Part shown: positions 3,019 through 12,671 of the stretch, in pieces
Numbering within the stretch: position 1 is the first letter of the stretch
How the letters are laid out: every line of letters begins with the position of its first letter
Virus record (IMG/VR): IMGVR_UViG_2563366917_000002
Reading direction: 5' to 3' (one strand)
DNA from: a virus
Lineage: Duplodnaviria; Heunggongvirae; Uroviricota; Caudoviricetes
Length of the DNA stretch: 23,950 nt
The notes under the pieces: model-generated
Told to the model about the DNA's origin: nothing
The model's database searches: none
Seen by the model: the letters and a program-made list of their open reading frames with translations, nothing else
Translations under genes and position numbers: made by a program

Positions 3019-3689
3019 TGCTCTCCAAATACAAAACCAATTTCAGCCAGTGCTTCGTCCATTTTTTCGATGAACTCCGGCACCATCTCGTCAAAACTCG
3101 CCATGTACTTTTCATCCCGCTCAACCACGACATAATGCAGGCCTTCACGCTTCATTCGTGGGTCATAGTTGGCAAAGTACCAGGCATCTTTTCGTGTCAC
3201 CCACATGCTGTACTGCACCTGGGCCATGTAAGCCGACTTTATGGCCTCGAAACCACCGAGCCGGAACTTCATGAAATCCCGGGAGGTAAACGGGCATTTC
3301 AGCTCAAGGCCATTGCCGTCACTGCATAAACCATCGGGAGAGCAGGCGGTGCGCATACTTTCGTCGCGATAGATGATCGGGGATTCAGTAACATTCACGC
3401 CGGAAGTGAATTCAAACAGGGTTCTGGCGTCGTTCTCGTACTGTTTTCCCCACGCCAGCGCCTTAGCATTAACTTCCGGAGCCACACCGGTGCAAACCTC
3501 AGCCAGCAGGGTGTGGAAGTAGGACATTTTCATGTCAGGCCACTTCTTTCCTGAGCGGGGCTTTGCTATCACGTTGTGAACTTCTGAAGCGGTGATGACG
3601 CCGAGCCGTAATTTGTGCCATGCATCATCCCCCTGTTCGACAGCTCTCACGTCGATCCCGGTACGCTGCAGGATAATGTCCGGTGTCAT
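3009..3689 (-). CDS. exo: lambda exonuclease (Red-alpha), 5'-3' dsDNA exonuclease
   Basis: 226-aa ORF ([40 protein letters not shown]...) near-identical to lambda Exo as recalled. Start overlaps the bet stop. Confidence 0.95.
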
Positions 3690-6162: not shown

Positions 6163-6744
6163 ATGAACAACTCATGGTGGCAGGAACTAATGCATTTTTT
6201 CCTGCAAGGAATGACACTTAAACAGTTGATTCATATGCTAATCATCCTGATCATATTGATTATTGTTATGCCGGTAAGCGTAAAAGAATGGATAAACCTG
6301 CATAATCCAGAAATCCTTCCTCATTACTGGATGTATTACATCCTGTTGTTTTGCGTTAGCTATGTGCTTAACGGCGTTGTTAATTCCGCTTATCACGCTG
6401 TGACTGAAAGAATTGAGGTATTCGCTGCTCAGAAGCGCAAATCTAAAGAAGAAAAATATGTGCAAGATTTGTTTGATTCGTTAACTCTTGGAGAAAGAGC
6501 GTATTTGGCATTCGCTGTAGCCGCTAATAACCAGCTACAAACGGAAAAGGGCGCTCATGAATCAATTTCATTGCTCAAAAAAGGACTCCTCGTTCGAAGG
6601 CCTCCTGCTGTTGGATATCCTGATACCGACCGTTTCGTTATCCCTGAAAGCTATAGACATGAGTGCTACATTAGGTTTGCCGGGAAGGCAGACAGCCTTA
6701 TGGATGAACTTATCGCTCAGGATAAGCATGGCAAAAACAAGTAA
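6163..6744 (+). CDS. sieB: SieB superinfection exclusion protein (membrane)
   Basis: 193-aa ORF on the opposite strand between ral and N, as in lambda. Hydrophobic N-terminal half (LIHMLIILIILIIVMPV...). Matches lambda SieB as recalled. Confidence 0.85.
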   Translation: MNNSWWQELMHFFLQGMTLKQLIHMLIILIILIIVMPVSVKEWINLHNPEILPHYWMYYILLFCVSYVLNGVVNSAYHAVTERIEVFAAQKRKSKEEKYVQDLFDSLTLGERAYLAFAVAANNQLQTEKGAHESISLLKKGLLVRRPPAVGYPDTDRFVIPESYRHECYIRFAGKADSLMDELIAQDKHGKNK

Positions 6745-6760
6745 TTAGCAAATGAATTTA

Positions 6761-7033
6761 TCATCTCGCCGTCAGTTGTTTTGATTTCCGGTAGCCTGCC
6801 GCGTAAAGAGCTACGTTCGGAAGACAAGTTGAACCTTCATATTTTCTGGTCAACGTTGTCAGAGTTATCACTTCTGCTCTCATTGCTGGTTTGAGCTTGC
6901 ATTGCAAGACCACTCGTGAAGGGGTTGGCCTGTGTAGCTTGTCGGAGCTGATCGCCTCCTGACTTTGCAGATTTGCGCGACGAGCTCTACGGCGAGAAGC
7001 TGCGGTGCCTTTAAATTCTGTTTTTCTGGACAT
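6761..7033 (-). CDS. N: N-type transcription antiterminator, P22 gene-24-like
   Basis: Arginine-rich motif near the N-terminus (GTAASRRRARRA) and C-terminus ...VALYAAGYRKSKQLTAR resembling the P22 N homologue. Start chosen at the internal ATG 7033, which has a GGGAGG Shine-Dalgarno; the track ORF extends to 7105. Confidence 0.7.
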   Translation of the reverse strand: MSRKTEFKGTAASRRRARRANLQSQEAISSDKLHRPTPSRVVLQCKLKPAMRAEVITLTTLTRKYEGSTCLPNVALYAAGYRKSKQLTAR

Positions 7034-7131
7034 GGATTCCTCCCGAATAAACTTTGGCGATGCAATCTCGAAGCTCCTCCTGAGACGGTTGCTTCGGCAT
7101 TGCATCCCACAGCTTATGTGGTTGGGTGATC

Positions 7132-7177
7132 TGGCTTTTCAGCCACGTAGTCGAGAGTCGACGTTGTTTAAAGAGCC
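7132..7177 (-). promoter_or_regulatory. nutL: boxA plus boxB hairpin
   Basis: On the minus-strand RNA: boxA-like GCUCUUUAAACAA (plus 7163-7177), then boxB UGGCU-GAAA-AGCCA (plus 7132-7145), a 5-bp stem with a GAAA loop. Located between pL and N. Confidence 0.5.
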
Positions 7178-7199
7178 TGCCAGTCTGTTCCATTTGGCT

Positions 7200-7300
7200 T
7201 CCAGCGTCCTGCTGACGGTTAAATAGTACGATATGTACTTTACAAGATCAATACAATTTGTTGTAAGTTGGCGTGGTTTTTTATAACGCTTTGTATTTAA
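7200..7300 (-). promoter_or_regulatory. pL / OL region (leftward early promoter and operators)
   Basis: Intergenic AT-rich region upstream of N containing palindromes AGTACGATATGTACT (7225-7239) and TACAATTTGTTGTA (7252-7265). Exact promoter hexamers not resolved. Confidence 0.4.
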
Positions 7301-7469
7301 TAGTGTTGTTTTTTAGCGTGGATGTATTGCCTCGGCGATGTAAGGAGAGATCAGAATTGCGTGGTTTAGTGGGTTGCATCTATTTATTTTTCAATAAATA
7401 TAATTGGTTATGTGTTTTTAGGTGGGCGAACGTGAGGCAAAGAAAACCCGGCGCTGAGGCCGGGTTGTA

Positions 7470-8222
7470 TTATGCTGCAAGTCTCTTAACCCAAGTCTCT
7501 CTTTTGGAGAATGGTAGAACTTGGCTTGATTCATGGAAGAGTAAGGAGAGTTGTTGCATTTGATCACCAATTGCTTCGCTGTCTATAACAACAAATCTGT
7601 TGTTATACTCCTCACTTGAAGCTTTAAGATCAATTAGTTTCCCAAGCAATGAGTAAGCACTATTCCAGCTTCCTCCGTGTTTCACGCTTGATGTAAAAAC
7701 GTATTTAGGTATGTCGGTTTTTATTGTTACAGGGACGGTAATTTGATGTCCACTCAAGCCATATACGTTTTCACGAAGAGAAAGTGCGTCTCTAAGCTCT
7801 GTGTGATATAGATAATCAATAACCATACTTTCAAACTTTTCAGCTTGAACTGGCTGATACCAGTCTAACGACAAAGTTGATGCGAGTATACCAGCTCTAA
7901 TTATGTTCGATGTAATCGCACCGACATCCTTTTCTGTTGCCCAAGCAATGATTTCTCCTCGAGCATTGAGTTCTGCGCCTTCTTTAAGCAGTAATTGTCG
8001 TATCTCATCAAGTCGTTTTTTGGTAAGCGAGATCCCTCTTGCCTCCATATTCATTAAGGCATCGCATCTGTCACTAACTAAATACCTACCATTGACTTCA
8101 CGGATAAAGGCACCGACATGCTCTCCATCATCACAGTAAGTGAATGGACTGATAATTCTCAAGGTCTTGCCTATTGGATGGCATTCGAAACCTAGTTGTG
8201 AGATCACTGTTGAGCACATCAT
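7470..8222 (-). CDS. unknown protein, gene 2 of a two-gene module at the rexAB-equivalent locus
   Basis: 250-aa ORF. Its ATG overlaps the upstream gene's stop (ATGA). By eye the DNA is AT-richer than flanking phage genes. No Walker A, HEPN or obvious nuclease motif recognised. Confidence 0.6.
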   Translation of the reverse strand: MMCSTVISQLGFECHPIGKTLRIISPFTYCDDGEHVGAFIREVNGRYLVSDRCDALMNMEARGISLTKKRLDEIRQLLLKEGAELNARGEIIAWATEKDVGAITSNIIRAGILASTLSLDWYQPVQAEKFESMVIDYLYHTELRDALSLRENVYGLSGHQITVPVTIKTDIPKYVFTSSVKHGGSWNSAYSLLGKLIDLKASSEEYNNRFVVIDSEAIGDQMQQLSLLFHESSQVLPFSKRETWVKRLAA

Positions 8223-8776
8223 ATTCCAAACCCCATTTGCCCCGACTCATCTTCAAGCGGTAAAGGTATTCTCCCAGAGTAAGTTATGTTCAGATGTTTA
8301 CAGAAGTAATTCCAATACCCTACCAGGTCATCTGGGTTTATGTCATCTTCGATTGGAAACGCTATTCTATCACTATAGTATCCAGCTTCTTCATAGTATA
8401 CATGGTAGTGAGCACCGTAAATGATATCTTGGTACTTCGGATGATCGACCTTGTAACTATTCGTGTGTTTGTCAAAGTGATAGGTATCTACCGCGAAAAC
8501 CCTCTTGTTATGATAGAAAGCAATAATATTTATTTTAGGGTAAGAAATCGGGTCATCAGGTTCTGAATCCTGATCTGGTTTCCATTTCAGTTCAAACTTT
8601 AGCCCTTGTATAGGTATACAATCCTCATCCAAGGGGATGATATGGGCTTGTAGCCACATATCAGAGCGACTTGGTTTCTGTTTCCATTTAACGCCAGAAA
8701 AGTTAACTATTTTTTTACAATAAAGTACTTTATCAACTTCTACTTGGCTTGGCTGATAATCATCTATTTTTGCCAA
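8219..8776 (-). CDS. unknown protein, gene 1 of a two-gene module at the rexAB-equivalent locus
   Basis: 185-aa ORF beginning 39 nt after the cI stop. The first in-frame start is TTG at 8776, with a GGCGG-like Shine-Dalgarno upstream; the frame is closed upstream by TAA. Rich in Tyr/His/Asp; no recognised family. Confidence 0.55.
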   Translation of the reverse strand: MAKIDDYQPSQVEVDKVLYCKKIVNFSGVKWKQKPSRSDMWLQAHIIPLDEDCIPIQGLKFELKWKPDQDSEPDDPISYPKINIIAFYHNKRVFAVDTYHFDKHTNSYKVDHPKYQDIIYGAHYHVYYEEAGYYSDRIAFPIEDDINPDDLVGYWNYFCKHLNITYSGRIPLPLEDESGQMGFGI

Positions 8777-8815
8777 TGTTTACCGCCCTGTAAATTGTAG
8801 ATAAAAGTGGTTTCA

Positions 8816-9475
8816 TCACCCAAACGTCTCTTCAGGCCATTGGCTGGCGATAACTTTCCCCACAACGGAACAACTCTCATTGCATGGGATCATTGGGTAT
8901 TGTGGGTTTAGTGGCTGTAGAAACACCTGACCGCTATCCCTGATCAGTTTCTTGAAGGTAAATTCATCACCACCAAGTCTGGCTATGCAGAAATCGCCGG
9001 GCTCAACAGCTTGCTCAGGGTCAACCAGAATTAACATCCCGTCAGGAAAGCTGGGTTTGGAACCTGTTGGTGCGGTCATTGAGTTACCTTCAACCTCAAG
9101 CCAGAATGCAGAGTCACTGGCTTTTTTGGTTGTGCTTACCAATCTCTCCGCATCGCCTTTGGTAAAGGTTCTGAGTTCTGGAGAGAACATCCCAGCCTGA
9201 ACATGAGAAAAAACAGGGTACTCATATTGTTTTTTAACTGGGGCCGATGAGTATTCGCCAACAGGTGAAAATGTCCCGTCGTGGTTGAATGATATGTTAT
9301 CAATACCAAGGTATTTAAACACCACACCAATATCACTAAGAGATGGATGACGAGATCCGCGCAACCAGTGTCCAATCCCACCCTGCGTCATACCTAGCTC
9401 TTCGGCTAACTTCTCTTGAGTTATGCCGAGCTCTTTCATTCTGGATCTAGCCAGTTCATACCATTTCATTTTCAT
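8816..9475 (-). CDS. cI: cI repressor: lambda-identical C-terminal dimerisation/autocleavage domain with a non-lambda N-terminal HTH domain
   Basis: From ...[50 protein letters not shown]... to the end it matches lambda cI (S24 peptidase-like domain). The N-terminal ~90 aa ([44 protein letters not shown]...) is a different HTH. Start taken at 9475/9469; the track ORF extends to 9517. Confidence 0.9.
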
Positions 9476-9586
9476 GTCCTTATTATTACGCTCTGTACTG
9501 GAACCATCCATGCACAATGTGTATTTTTACTTGTATTCGCAAAGTACATATTGTATTTTTTTATTCGTGTTTACTATGGAGGGCAT
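9476..9586. promoter_or_regulatory. OR / pRM / pR region between divergent cI and cro
   Basis: 111-bp AT-rich intergenic region with GTAC/TGTA-containing partial palindromes (e.g. AGTACATATTGTAT at 9543-9556) resembling the OL palindrome at 7225-7239. Confidence 0.55.
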
Positions 9587-9802
9587 ATGAGCAACCTACG
9601 AAAATATCGAGAGTCACTGAATATCTCTCAAACAACACTTGCTAAGGCAGTTGGATGCACACAGGGAGCTATCGGACATTGGGAATCTGGTCGTCGCTTC
9701 CCAGACCTTAAAACATGCCGTGCTCTTGTTGCGTGCCTAAACAAGTTAGGCGCAAAAGTCAGTCTTGATGACGTGTTCCCGCCGGAACACAAAGCCGCTT
9801 AA
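9587..9802 (+). CDS. cro: Cro-like HTH repressor
   Basis: 71-aa ORF from the internal ATG 9587, preceded by GGAGGG. HTH signature ISQTTLAKAVGCTQGAIGHWESG. Divergent from cI. Confidence 0.8.
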   Translation: MSNLRKYRESLNISQTTLAKAVGCTQGAIGHWESGRRFPDLKTCRALVACLNKLGAKVSLDDVFPPEHKAA

Positions 9803-9812
9803 TAAGCGGATC

Positions 9813-9858
9813 CGCTCTTTGTAACAACGGACATTCGTCCTACGTCGCTGAAAAGCGA
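9813..9858 (+). promoter_or_regulatory. nutR: boxA plus boxB hairpin
   Basis: boxA-like CGCTCTTTGTAACAA (9813-9827), then boxB UCGCU-GAAA-AGCGA (9845-9858), the same 5-bp stem and GAAA loop as the nutL candidate. Confidence 0.5.
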
Positions 9859-9943
9859 GTTCCAAGATATCTGACCAACTAAGGCCATATGCGTTTCCAC
9901 GCATACCTTTCAACTAACTATTCACTATTGGAAATCTTAAGAA

Positions 9944-10240
9944 ATGGAAAGAACAAGTTACAGCAAACTATCACAGCGTGACGTTGATCGCGCAGAAACA
10001 GATTTACTTATCAATCTGTCAGCTATTACCCAGCGCGGTCTGGCAAAGATGATTGGCTGTCATGAATCGAAGATAAGCAGAACGGACTGGAGATTTATTG
10101 CTTCGGTCTTGTGTGCTTTCGGAATGGCATCAGACATCAGTCCGATTAGCAGGGCTTTTAAGTATGCGCTTGATGGACTCACCAATAAAAAACGCCCGGC
10201 GGCAACCGAGCGTTCTGAACAAATCCAGATGGAATTCTGA
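9944..10240 (+). CDS. cII: cII transcriptional activator (mosaic: divergent N-terminus, lambda-like C-terminus)
   Basis: 98-aa ORF. The C-terminus ...LTNKKRPAATERSEQIQMEF matches lambda cII as recalled; the N-terminal part differs. Confidence 0.8.
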   Translation: MERTSYSKLSQRDVDRAETDLLINLSAITQRGLAKMIGCHESKISRTDWRFIASVLCAFGMASDISPISRAFKYALDGLTNKKRPAATERSEQIQMEF

Positions 10241-10272
10241 GGTCATTACTGGATCAATCCACAGGAGTCATT

Positions 10273-11172
10273 ATGACAAATACAGCAAAAATACTCAACT
10301 TCTGCAGAGGTAACTTTGCCAAACAGGAGCGTAATGTGGCAGATCTCGATGATGGTTACGCCAGACTATCAAATATGCTGCTTGAGGCTTATTCAGGCGC
10401 AGATCTGACCAAGCGACAGTTTAAAGTGCTGCTTGCCATTCTGCGTAAAACCTATGGATGGAATAAACCAATGGACAGAATCACCGATTCTCAACTTAGC
10501 GAGATTACAAAGTTACCCGTCAAACGGTGCAATGAAGCCAAGTTAGAACTCGTCAGAATGAATATTATCAAGCAGCAAGGCGGCATGTTTGGACCAAATA
10601 AAAACATCTCAGAATGGTGTATCCCTCAAAACGAGGGAAAATCCCCTAAAACGAGGGATAAAACATCCCTCAAATTGGGGGATTGCTATCCCTCAAAACA
10701 GGGGGACACAAAAGACACTATTACAAAAGAAAAAAGAAAAGATTATTCGTCAGAGAATTCTGGCGAATCCTCTGACCAGCCAGAAAACGACCTTTCTGTG
10801 GTGAAACCGGATGCTGCAATTCAGAGCGGCAGCAAGTGGGGGACAGCAGAAGACCTGACCGCCGCAGAATGGATGTTTGACATGGTGAAGACCATCGCGC
10901 CATCAGCCAGAAAACCGAATTTTGCAGGGTGGGCTAACGATATCCGCCTGATGCGTGAACGTGACGGACGTAACCATCGCGACATGTGTGTACTGTTCCG
11001 CTGGGCATGCCAGGACAACTTCTGGTCCGGTAACGTGCTGAGCCCGGCCAAACTCCGCGACAAGTGGACCCAGCTCGAAATCAACCGTAACAAGCAACAG
11101 GCAGGTGTGACAGCCTGCAAACCAAAACTCGACCTGACAAACACTGACTGGATTTACGGGGTGGATTTATGA
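10273..11172 (+). CDS. O: replication initiator O
   Basis: 299-aa ORF matching lambda O as recalled, with the origin iterons embedded in the coding sequence. Confidence 0.95.
   Translation: MTNTAKILNFCRGNFAKQERNVADLDDGYARLSNMLLEAYSGADLTKRQFKVLLAILRKTYGWNKPMDRITDSQLSEITKLPVKRCNEAKLELVRMNIIKQQGGMFGPNKNISEWCIPQNEGKSPKTRDKTSLKLGDCYPSKQGDTKDTITKEKRKDYSSENSGESSDQPENDLSVVKPDAAIQSGSKWGTAEDLTAAEWMFDMVKTIAPSARKPNFAGWANDIRLMRERDGRNHRDMCVLFRWACQDNFWSGNVLSPAKLRDKWTQLEINRNKQQAGVTACKPKLDLTNTDWIYGVDL
10621..10750 (+). repeat. ori-lambda: four ~19-20 bp iterons plus adjacent AT-rich unwinding region
   Basis: Direct repeats atccctcaaaacgagggaaa / atcccctaaaacgagggata / catccctcaaattgggggat / ctatccctcaaaacaggggga at 10621-10705, followed by an A-rich tract at 10706-10750. 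Confidence 0.85.
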
Positions 11173-11870
11173 AAAACATCGCCGCACAGATGGTTAATTT
11201 TGACCGTGAGCAGATGCGTCGGATCGCCAACAACATGCCGGAACAGTACGACGAAAAGCCGCAGGTACAGCAGGTAGCGCAGATCATCAACGGTGTGTTC
11301 AGCCAGTTACTGGCAACTTTCCCGGCGAGTCTGGCTAACCGTGACCAGAACGAACTGAACGAAATCCGCCGCCAGTGGGTTCTGGCTTTCCGGGAAAACG
11401 GGATCACCACAATGGAACAGGTTAACGCAGGAATGCGCGTAGCCCGTCGGCAGAATCGACCATTTCTGCCATCACCCGGGCAGTTTGTTGCATGGTGCCG
11501 GGAAGAAGCATCCGTTATCGCCGGACTGCCAAACGTCAGCGAGCTGGTTGATATGGTTTACGAGTATTGCCGGAAGCGAGGCCTGTATCCGGATGCAGAG
11601 TCTTATCCGTGGAAATCGAACGCGCACTACTGGCTGGTTACCAACCTGTACCAGAACATGCGGGCCAATGCGCTGACTGACGCGGAATTACGACGCAAGG
11701 CTGCCGATGAACTGACCTGTATGACAGCGCGAATTAACCGTGGTGAGACGATACCTGAACCAGTAAAACAACTTCCTGTCATGGGCGGCAGACCTCTAAA
11801 TCGTGTTCAGGCGCTGGCGAAGATCGCAGAAATTAAAGCTAAGTTAGGACTGAAAGGAGCAAGTGTATGA
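11169..11870 (+). CDS. P: replication protein P (DnaB helicase loader)
   Basis: 233-aa ORF matching lambda P as recalled. Start overlaps the O stop. Confidence 0.95.
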   Translation: MKNIAAQMVNFDREQMRRIANNMPEQYDEKPQVQQVAQIINGVFSQLLATFPASLANRDQNELNEIRRQWVLAFRENGITTMEQVNAGMRVARRQNRPFLPSPGQFVAWCREEASVIAGLPNVSELVDMVYEYCRKRGLYPDAESYPWKSNAHYWLVTNLYQNMRANALTDAELRRKAADELTCMTARINRGETIPEPVKQLPVMGGRPLNRVQALAKIAEIKAKLGLKGASV

Positions 11871-12157
11871 CGGGCAAAGAGGCAATTATTCATTACCTGG
11901 GGACGCATAATAGCTTCTGTGCGCCGGACGTTGCCGCGCTAACAGGCGCAACAGTAACCAGCATAAATCAGGCCGCGGCTAAAATGGCACGGGCAGGTCT
12001 TCTGGTTATCGAAGGTAAGGTCTGGCGAACGGTGTATTACCGGTTTGCTACCAAGGAAGAACGGGAAGGAAAGATGAGCACGAACCTGATTTTTAAGGAG
12101 TGTCGCCAGAGTGCCACGATGAAACGGATATTGGCGGTATATGGAGTTAAAAGATGA
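11867..12157 (+). CDS. ren: Ren (Rex exclusion protection protein)
   Basis: 96-aa ORF matching lambda Ren as recalled. Start overlaps the P stop. Confidence 0.85.
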   Translation: MTGKEAIIHYLGTHNSFCAPDVAALTGATVTSINQAAAKMARAGLLVIEGKVWRTVYYRFATKEEREGKMSTNLIFKECRQSATMKRILAVYGVKR

Positions 12158-12230
12158 CCATCTACATCACTGAGCTAATAACAGGCCTGCAGGTAATCGC
12201 AGGCCTTTTTATTTGGGGGAGAGGGAAGTC

Positions 12231-12671
12231 ATGAAAAAACTAACCTTTGAAATTCGATCTCCGGCACATCAGCAAAACGCTATTCACGCAGTACAGCAAA
12301 TCCTTCCAGACCCAACCAAACCAATCGTAGTAACCATTCAGGAACGCAACCGCAGCTTAGACCAAAACAGGAAGCTATGGGCCTGCTTAGGTGACGTCTC
12401 TCGTCAGGTTGAATGGCATGGTCGCTGGCTGGATGCAGAAAGCTGGAAGTGTGTGTTTACCGCAGCATTAAAGCAGCAGGATGTTGTTCCTAACCTTGCC
12501 GGGAATGGCTTTGTGGTAATAGGCCAGTCAACCAGCAGGATGCGTGTAAGCGAATTTGCGGAGCTATTAGAGCTTATACAGGCATTCGGTACAGAGCGTG
12601 GCGTTAAGTGGTCAGACGAAGCGCGACTGGCTCTCGAATGGAAAGCGCGATGGGGAGATCGGGCTGCATGA
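12231..12671 (+). CDS. ninB: NinB (Orf-family recombination mediator)
   Basis: 146 aa from MKKLTFEIRSPAHQQNAIHAVQQ..., matching lambda NinB as recalled. The track ORF starts 6 codons upstream. Confidence 0.85.
   Translation: MKKLTFEIRSPAHQQNAIHAVQQILPDPTKPIVVTIQERNRSLDQNRKLWACLGDVSRQVEWHGRWLDAESWKCVFTAALKQQDVVPNLAGNGFVVIGQSTSRMRVSEFAELLELIQAFGTERGVKWSDEARLALEWKARWGDRAA

Follow-up and report, generated by a model that had tools for sequence, protein, structure and literature searches.

The immunity region described here most probably represents a VT2-Sakai-type switch in a lambda-like temperate coliphage, a reading to which we give a probability of about 90%. The window, by which we mean the whole 23,950-bp stretch of DNA analyzed, contains the early region of this phage. 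Its cI gene is predicted to encode a two-domain LexA-like repressor, in which a Sakai-type HTH head would read six 17-bp dyads, split evenly between OR, in the cI-cro gap, and OL, upstream of N, and a lambda-type tail would provide dimerization, cooperative pairing, and RecA-stimulated self-cleavage. Direct support for this reading comes from the domain structure of the repressor, its catalytic and cleavage residues, six statistically supported and conserved sites, and identity to a known module.

Phages PhiR63_2, PhiR57_1, ev017, and ev207 match the whole window at 99 to 100% identity over 77 to 90% of its length, and positions 6700 to 10300 are 100% identical in all four. The features of the region are collected in Table 1. 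The N gene probably starts at the ATG at 7033, and a short form of N is annotated in PV340572. The gap between cI and cro measures 111 bp. The cargo genes gave Pfam matches to DUF1828 and, weakly, to DUF6978, and PADLOC matches to PDC-M24B (4.7e-10) and PDC-M24A (4.8e-4); they are probably cotranscribed with cI from PRM. Lambda-homologous DNA flanks the cargo slot on both sides. Positions 7345 to 7466 are 90% identical to lambda 35708-35826, which in lambda is the region just downstream of rexB, and the predicted terminator falls within this homologous stretch. Further to the right, identity to lambda is 97% over the end of cII and over O, P, and ren.

Table 1. Features of the immunity region and neighboring genes (positions in the window)
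Feature	Position	Strand	Sequence or elements	Remarks and basis
sieB	6163-6744	+		ORF
N antiterminator	6761..7105	-		First gene of pL operon; Pfam N_peptide 9.7e-33
Leftward control region	about 7220-7300			Between N and cargo ORFs
pL (predicted)	7223..7251	-	-35 TTGATC (7251..7246), 17-nt spacer, -10 TACTAT (7228..7223)	
OL1 (putative)	7224..7240		TAGTACGATATGTACTT	Contains palindrome AGTACGATATGTACT; overlaps predicted pL -10
OL2 (putative)	7249..7265		CAATACAATTTGTTGTA	Overlaps predicted pL -35
OL3 (putative)	7282..7298		TATAACGCTTTGTATTT	One base off third leftward operator of AP005153 (TACAACG...)
Intrinsic terminator (predicted)	7445..7466	-		Would close cI-cargo operon; terminator prediction
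Two-gene cargo	7470..8776	-		Occupies lambda's rexA/rexB slot, downstream of cI; ORF calls
Cargo ORFs	7470-8222 and 8219-8776	-		
cI repressor gene	8816..9475	-		219 aa from ATG at 9475 (MKMKWYEL...)
Lambda-type hinge end and C-terminal S24 oligomerization/autocleavage domain	8816..9226	-		Lambda DNA and protein alignment
VT2-Sakai-type N-terminal HTH DNA-binding domain	9227..9475	-		98.8-100% identity to VT2-Sakai, Nil2, Stx1/Stx2 phages
PRM (predicted)	9482..9510	-	-35 TGGATG (9510..9505), 17-nt spacer, -10 AATAAT (9487..9482)	
OR3 (putative)	9484..9500		TATTACGCTCTGTACTG	Identical to VT2-Sakai/AP005153 OR3; overlaps predicted PRM -10
OR2 (putative)	9510..9526		ATGCACAATGTGTATTT	Adjoins predicted PRM -35
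pR (predicted)	9526..9554	+	-35 TTTACT (9526-9531), 17-nt spacer, -10 TATTGT (9549-9554)	
OR1 (putative)	9542..9558		AAGTACATATTGTATTT	Contains palindrome AGTACATATTGTAT; overlaps predicted pR spacer and -10
cro	9587..9802	+		71 aa, all-helical HTH_3/Xre-type; Pfam HTH_3 4.2e-12
cII	9944-10240			Followed by O and P
CII-box-like site	9953..9966	-	TTGC-N6-TTGT	At start of cII; only match to TTGCNNNNNNTTGY in window

The open frame of cI spans 8816 to 9517 on the minus strand. Pfam placed an HTH_3 domain at residues 11 to 58 (E = 1.9e-10) and a Peptidase_S24 domain behind it (1.1e-28), confirming the assignment as a cI-type repressor. The protein has the N-terminal HTH, the S24 Ser/Lys dyad, and the hinge Ala-Gly site of the LexA/lambda-cI type. 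In a residue alignment to 3bdn and 8gmu, its cleavage site Ala94-Gly95 and its residues Ser132 and Lys175 correspond to lambda A111-G112, S149, and K192. The original prediction, made from the sequence, described the repressor as a chimera with a lambda-identical C-terminal domain (CTD) and a DNA-binding domain that is not lambda's, and this description was borne out, nearly in full for the CTD protein. Of the last 136 residues, 135 are those of lambda cI, the sole change being lambda W129 to L. At the DNA level, the corresponding stretch (8815/8816-9226 against lambda 37226-37637) is 93.4% identical, with 27 differences in 411 nt, of which 26 lead to synonymous and one to a nonsynonymous codon difference. 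The lambda homology ends at 9226, near codon 84 and inside the hinge, and the DNA comparison with lambda found none upstream of this point in the cI head. The first 83 residues share the common HTH fold with lambda and are otherwise unrelated, the aligned N-terminal domains being about 23% identical as proteins.

The 83-aa head had also been called novel, and this part of the prediction did not hold. The head is 100% identical in the Stx1-converting phage (AP005153), Nil2, Stx2a_WGPS, and the PA-series Stx2a phages, and it falls within a range of 98.8 to 100% when Stx2 phage II and VT2-Sakai (98.8%) are included. It belongs to the VT2-Sakai type, and the palindromes first proposed as its targets turned out to lie in putative operators that earlier records and papers give for that type. 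The whole 219-aa cI is 100% identical to the cI of AP005153, and the 71-aa Cro is identical to the putative Cro of the same phage (ORF B58). The window phage thus has the same head, the same Cro, and the same operator set as the VT2-Sakai immunity type. Of the six 17-mers annotated in AP005153 as a "putative operator," four (OR1, OR2, OR3, and OL1) are identical to those of the window and two differ by one base; OL2 equals that of VT2-Sakai (...GTTCTA) apart from this one base. The same 17-mers are given as VT2-Sakai operators in a 2023 paper (PMC10742460, Table S1), and OL1 to OL3 and OR1 to OR3 of Sakai-type Stx2a phages were predicted by Yin et al. in 2015 (PMC4587872). According to the account of Fattah et al. 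(2000) contained in PMC10742460, the VT2-Sa CI is lambda-like in its C-terminal part and dissimilar in its N-terminal part.

The expectation that the immunity specificity differs from that of lambda agrees with the sequences of the sites. The six sites scored −1.9 to −12.5 bits with a lambda-operator matrix, which gave no match above 11 bits anywhere in the window, compared with 13.5 to 22.7 bits for lambda's own sites, and none of the six sites conforms to the lambda operator consensus TATCACCGC..GGTGATA. Because all six score below zero, the module is, by sequence, not of lambda immunity. Even so, the two phages might show functional cross-immunity despite their different heads, through residual operator recognition or through the common tail. 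Cross-immunity with lambda was seen by Fattah et al. (2000), as far as their work is related in PMC10742460, and the near-identity of the CTD makes mixed oligomers chemically plausible. In gel shifts, moreover, lambda CI at micromolar concentrations shifted all VT2-Sakai operator oligonucleotides, if weakly, with apparent KD values of 3.7 to 6.4 uM (PMC10742460). These values, obtained on single sites and without a reported nonspecific control, are however 10 to 25 times weaker than those for lambda OL1 and OR1 (0.2 to 0.35 uM) and similar to the value for the weakest lambda site (PMC10742460). Together with the negative matrix scores, this leads us to regard functional cross-immunity as unlikely.

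A related, somewhat speculative idea, which we hold to be doubtful but a little less so, is that lambda-type and Sakai-type repressors form mixed dimers or mixed looping complexes in double lysogens. In the phage collection, the lambda-type tail is joined both to lambda-type heads (lambda, HK106, mEp234, and HK542) and to Sakai-type heads, and since a tail with 135 of 136 identical residues is borne by at least two head types, mixed dimers or mixed looping would be possible in strains with both prophages. A total of 1,211 genomes contain DNA of the lambda-type tail, at 1,435 places altogether and in up to three copies per genome, and hence coresidence does occur. If such complexes form, two nominally heteroimmune switches would be coupled or mutually destabilized, and the complexes might underlie the cross-immunity that PMC10742460, in its account, ascribes to Fattah et al. 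(2000).

The predicted promoters are arranged around the putative operators, and their positions bear on where cI begins. None of pL, pR, and PRM was called by a sigma-70 consensus scan that required 9 of 12 matches; their positions rest on weaker matches, on the annotation of AP005153, and on conservation across four phages. AP005153 has a rightward promoter annotated at the place equivalent to pR, and the pL hexamer positions are annotated there as well, mislabeled as the cI maintenance promoter. An alternative pR would combine TTGTAT (9531-9536) and TATTTT (9554-9559), again with 17 nt between them. The A of the cI ATG at 9475 sits 7 nt past the predicted PRM -10 and by this placement is the likely transcription start. 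In ST64T and SPN9CC, a hexamer matching at least five of the six bases of the -10 consensus precedes the cI ATG by exactly 6 nt, and in a Klebsiella phage the distance is 7 nt. This recurring relation points to a cI mRNA that, when made from PRM, is probably leaderless, by analogy with lambda. We placed the start at 9475 on the basis of the N terminus conserved in ST64T, SPN9CC, and the Klebsiella phage; a second in-frame ATG follows at 9469.

Alternatively, cI could be a longer protein of 231 to 233 aa that starts at 9511 or 9517, in which case OR3 would lie within coding sequence and PRM further to the right. The open frame does reach 9517, and the ATG at 9511, which gives 231 aa, is used in two GenBank records, AP005153 and PV340572. 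However, the homologues all begin with MK(M/T/Q)xW and contain nothing that corresponds to the extra residues, and shorter starts are annotated in SPN9CC and VT2-Sakai. The -10-like hexamer keeps its distance from the short-form ATG in all four phages (6 nt in three, 7 nt in the fourth), and the two ATGs at 9475 and 9469 have a Shine-Dalgarno-like AAGGA in front of them. We consider the longer protein quite improbable, and because it would put OR3 inside the gene and add residues without counterpart, the long start in the two records is probably wrong.

The two palindromes of the original prediction, AGTACGATATGTACT at 7225-7239 and AGTACATATTGTAT at 9543-9556, are present at those places, and their proposed role as OL and OR candidates was sustained, as they form the cores of OL1 and OR1 in a set of six putative 17-bp operators with a TAC-N5-GTA core (OL1 to OL3 within 7224-7298 and OR3 to OR1 within 9484-9558). 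All 12 of their half-sites have A5, C6, and a purine at position 7, and 11 have A2; the dyad consensus reads nA(R)TAC(R)-N3-(Y)GTA(Y)Tn; the one-base differences of OL2 and OL3 from the annotated operators lie outside the invariant A5 and C6 and outside R7. A systematic search for a motif shared by both intergenic regions was positive. When a symmetric matrix was trained on the three OR sites, the three OL sites ranked 2, 5, and 6 among 23,934 positions, with ranks 1, 3, and 4 taken by the training sites themselves, and all three OL sites were hence the best nontraining matches in the window. In the reverse test, with a matrix trained on OL, the OR sites ranked 3, 5, and 9. Further, a search of the palindromic dyads that each control region contains two or more times brought out TACA-N3-TGTA, which, with one mismatch allowed, has five copies in the 475 bp of the control regions and nine in the remaining 23.5 kb. 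The Poisson probability is 1.4e-6, uncorrected for the roughly 18,000 patterns that were enumerated. The top dyad of this enumeration of about 18,000 palindromic patterns, TGTAC-N7-GTACA, was dropped, its matches straddling the gaps between neighboring sites.

Could the palindromes nevertheless be chance products of AT-rich intergenic DNA, with the true operators elsewhere? The exact TAC-N5-GTA dyad is not overrepresented in the window as a whole (5 found, 2.9 expected), and only its localization is significant, three of the five lying in the 2% of the window that the two control regions occupy. An inverted-repeat search with seed 6 also returned nothing in OR and, in the OL region, only a terminator and an AT palindrome, an outcome explained by operator arms of only 3 to 5 bp. 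Against chance stands, in addition to the selection of exactly the three OL sites by the OR-trained matrix, the overlap of the sites with the only plausible -10 and -35 elements. Three phages that differ from the window phage in the rest of their intergenic DNA, and whose repressor heads are only about 46 to 55% identical to its own, also have the same dyad and spacing at equivalent places. ST64T, a phage with L-type immunity, contains six exact dyads in 7.2 kb (0.69 expected), five of them in the cro-c2 gap and upstream of the N gene; SPN9CC contains five (0.66 expected), four in OR and OL; and the Klebsiella phage contains three (0.56 expected), two in OR. OR dyad spacings are 32/26 bp in the window phage, 34/26 bp in ST64T, 33/26 bp in SPN9CC, and 33/25 bp in the Klebsiella phage, and OL1 and OL2 are 25 bp apart in the window phage and in both Salmonella phages. 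In the genome paper on epsilon34, WTACRAWWTGTAT was put forward independently as the operator of a repressor whose head has L, VT2-Sa, and Nil2 as its nearest relatives (PMC2629481). We therefore regard a chance origin of the palindromes as very improbable. With this cross-validated and comparative evidence, operators that are still "putative" in public records have gained support.

The VT2-Sakai-type module is also widespread. Head-OR-cro DNA is present at 90% identity or more in 776 of 5,426 complete E. coli genomes (about 14%, or roughly one in seven), and the type strain ATCC 11775 carries it at 100%. The cI chimera, however clean relative to lambda and however sharp its DNA homology break at 9226, is scarcely credible as a new immunity type or as a recent hybrid formed by recombination of lambda itself with another phage, given that the same 219-aa protein exists in AP005153, the same head in many phages, VT2-Sakai and Nil2 among them, and the module in those 776 genomes, and that 26 of the 27 differing CTD codons are synonymous. 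This excess of synonymous differences indicates long separate descent under purifying selection rather than recent exchange with lambda, and the chimeric cI, judged by its sequence, is old.

The module, a lambdoid switch in textbook style, was sequenced between 1999 and 2003. It is already known, in a known phage lineage, and carries little weight as a discovery. VT2-Sakai (Sp5), AP005153, Stx2 phage II (AP005154), Nil2, and the PA-series phages have the gene order N, OL, cargo, cI, OR, cro, and cII, as here. Unlike the VT2-Sakai/AP005153 group, the window phage is lambda-like and not an Stx phage. Its slot between cI and OL holds two cargo genes, whereas the Stx phages have a single 522-nt ORF, and its O and P are those of lambda (97%), in contrast to the HK022-like O and the much longer P (1,452 nt) of the Stx phages.

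Under the VT2-Sakai-type reading, the switch would work along lambda lines. Repressor bound to OR1 and to OL1/OL2 would block pR and pL, respectively. Repressor on OR2, the center of which lies 43 bp upstream of the predicted PRM start (a geometry read from the sequence), probably would activate the weak PRM, the transcript of which would begin at the cI AUG, and at high levels repressor on OR3 would shut PRM. The lambda-type tail would mediate dimerization and cooperative pairing, probably with OL-OR looping over 2.3 kb, and self-cleavage at Ala94-Gly95 through the Ser132/Lys175 dyad, stimulated by RecA. The tail is lambda's own oligomerization domain, and the 2.3-kb distance from OL to OR matches that of lambda; by this analogy, the repressor is likely to pair cooperatively and to loop the DNA between OL and OR. 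The order of site occupancy, cooperativity, looping, activation of PRM, and the leaderless start are all points that we infer by analogy.

Cro would bind the same sites and favor lytic growth. Its HTH_3 fold is not that of lambda Cro, and its closest solved structure is 28tn_A (4.5e-17). Cro and the cI head are 35% identical and have the helix cores TQGAIGHW and TQGGIGHW, respectively; a common recognition-helix core is what would be expected if both proteins read the same sites. After infection, expression of cI would begin when CII acts at pRE, the promoter that first turns on cI and that is probably marked by the CII-box-like site. This site occupies the same position as the CII box of lambda pRE.

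The likeness to lambda thus extends from the CTD, with its cleavage site and Ser/Lys dyad, to the layout of the whole region, with two sets of three 17-bp operators separated by about 2.3 kb, divergent PRM and pR, OR2 about 42 to 43 bp upstream of the PRM start, a predicted leaderless cI, and a CII box at the start of cII. The differences lie in the head (about 23% identical), the unrelated operator sequence, the all-helical HTH_3 Cro, and the replacement of rexAB. The operator spacing also differs. It is OR2-OR3 (26 bp; 23 bp in lambda) that has a lambda-like spacing, whereas OR1-OR2 measures 32 bp, compared with 24 bp in lambda.

Beyond the Sakai-type phages, the c2 repressors of Salmonella phages L and ST64T and the cI repressors of epsilon34, SPN9CC, and g341c belong to the same head family, at 46 to 55% identity. 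ST64T and SPN9CC resemble the window phage in the TAC-N5-GTA dyad, the OR spacing, and the distance between the -10 element and the cI ATG, and the recognition-helix core T(Q/K/R)G(G/A)(I/V)xH(W/Y) is common to the cI heads and Cro proteins of all three phages. The tail of epsilon34 is about 80% identical to that of lambda (PMC2629481). The ST64T/SPN9CC group differs in the bases flanking and inside the dyad and in several recognition-helix residues (e.g., TKGAVSHW in SPN9CC), and because of these differences the window phage is likely heteroimmune, by sequence, with the L/ST64T and epsilon34/SPN9CC types.

A by-product of the analysis that may be useful concerns this larger family. One dyad, TAC-N5-GTA, and one OR spacing pattern, of 32 to 34 bp followed by 25 to 26 bp, span a large family of repressor heads that includes the Sakai-type phages, phage L/ST64T, epsilon34/SPN9CC, and a Klebsiella phage. 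The OR spacing of this family is unlike that of lambda, although some of its members carry lambda's cooperativity domain.

The operator spacing of the repressor is, judged from the sequences of the window phage and three related phages (ST64T, SPN9CC and a Klebsiella phage), a family trait. The distance from OR1 to OR2 is 32 to 34 bp and that from OR2 to OR3 is 25 to 26 bp in these four phages, in contrast to 24 bp and 23 bp, respectively, in lambda; the window repressor carries lambda's cooperativity domain and yet is paired with operators spaced unlike lambda's. In all four phages, the deviation from the exact dyad (TAC-N5-GTA) falls on OR2, the middle site.

Public records disagree on the start codon of cI (region 9469-9517). 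GenBank records AP005153 (a Stx1-converting phage) and PV340572 place it at 9511, giving 231 amino acids (aa), and the record of the Shiga toxin phage VT2-Sakai annotates the gene from an internal start as 510 nt. Because the cI N terminus and the spacing of a -10-like hexamer relative to the ATG are both conserved among the four phages, comparison of their sequences suggests that cI starts at 9475 (or 9469) and that its transcript from the predicted maintenance promoter PRM is leaderless. Across the whole window, the motif TTGC-N6-TTGY has a single match, whose position at the start of cII corresponds to that of the CII box of pRE, the CII-dependent cI promoter, in lambda. Cro (9587-9802) is an HTH_3 protein and does not have the lambda Cro fold. 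Among solved structures, the closest is PDB 28tn chain A, deposited as "lambda repressor-like protein," which matches over the full length (E value, 4.5e-17).

Features of the immunity region and operator regions compared
Feature	Position	Strand	Location
TTGC-N6-TTGY match	9953-9966	minus	start of cII
Intrinsic terminator	7466..7445	minus	within lambda-homologous stretch 7345-7466
Two-gene cassette	7470-8222 and 8219-8776	minus	lambda rexA and rexB slot
Operator regions, window	9484-9558 and 7224-7298
Operator region, L007 (ST64T)	3419-3489
Operator region, L006 (SPN9CC)	3421-3490
Operator region, L008 (Klebsiella phage)	2920-2988

The region from 10178 to 12587, which takes in the last part of cII, then O, P, and ren, and extends past them, is 97.4% identical to lambda 38591-41000; in contrast to the Stx phages with the same immunity region, this phage therefore has the replication module of lambda itself. 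Positions 7345-7466 are 90% identical to the DNA directly downstream of rexB in lambda (35708-35826); hence, the cargo slot shares its left boundary with lambda, whereas the adjoining operators are not conserved. Both flanks of the slot are lambda-homologous DNA, and the slot holds two genes here rather than the one different open reading frame found in Sakai-type Stx phages. The first encoded protein (250 aa) matches DUF1828 and, at 4.7e-10, the PADLOC candidate PDC-M24B. For the second (185 aa), the match to PDC-M24A is weak (PADLOC, 4.8e-4) and that to DUF6978 falls below that family's cutoff. This cassette is likely prophage-encoded defense or exclusion cargo that is coexpressed with cI.
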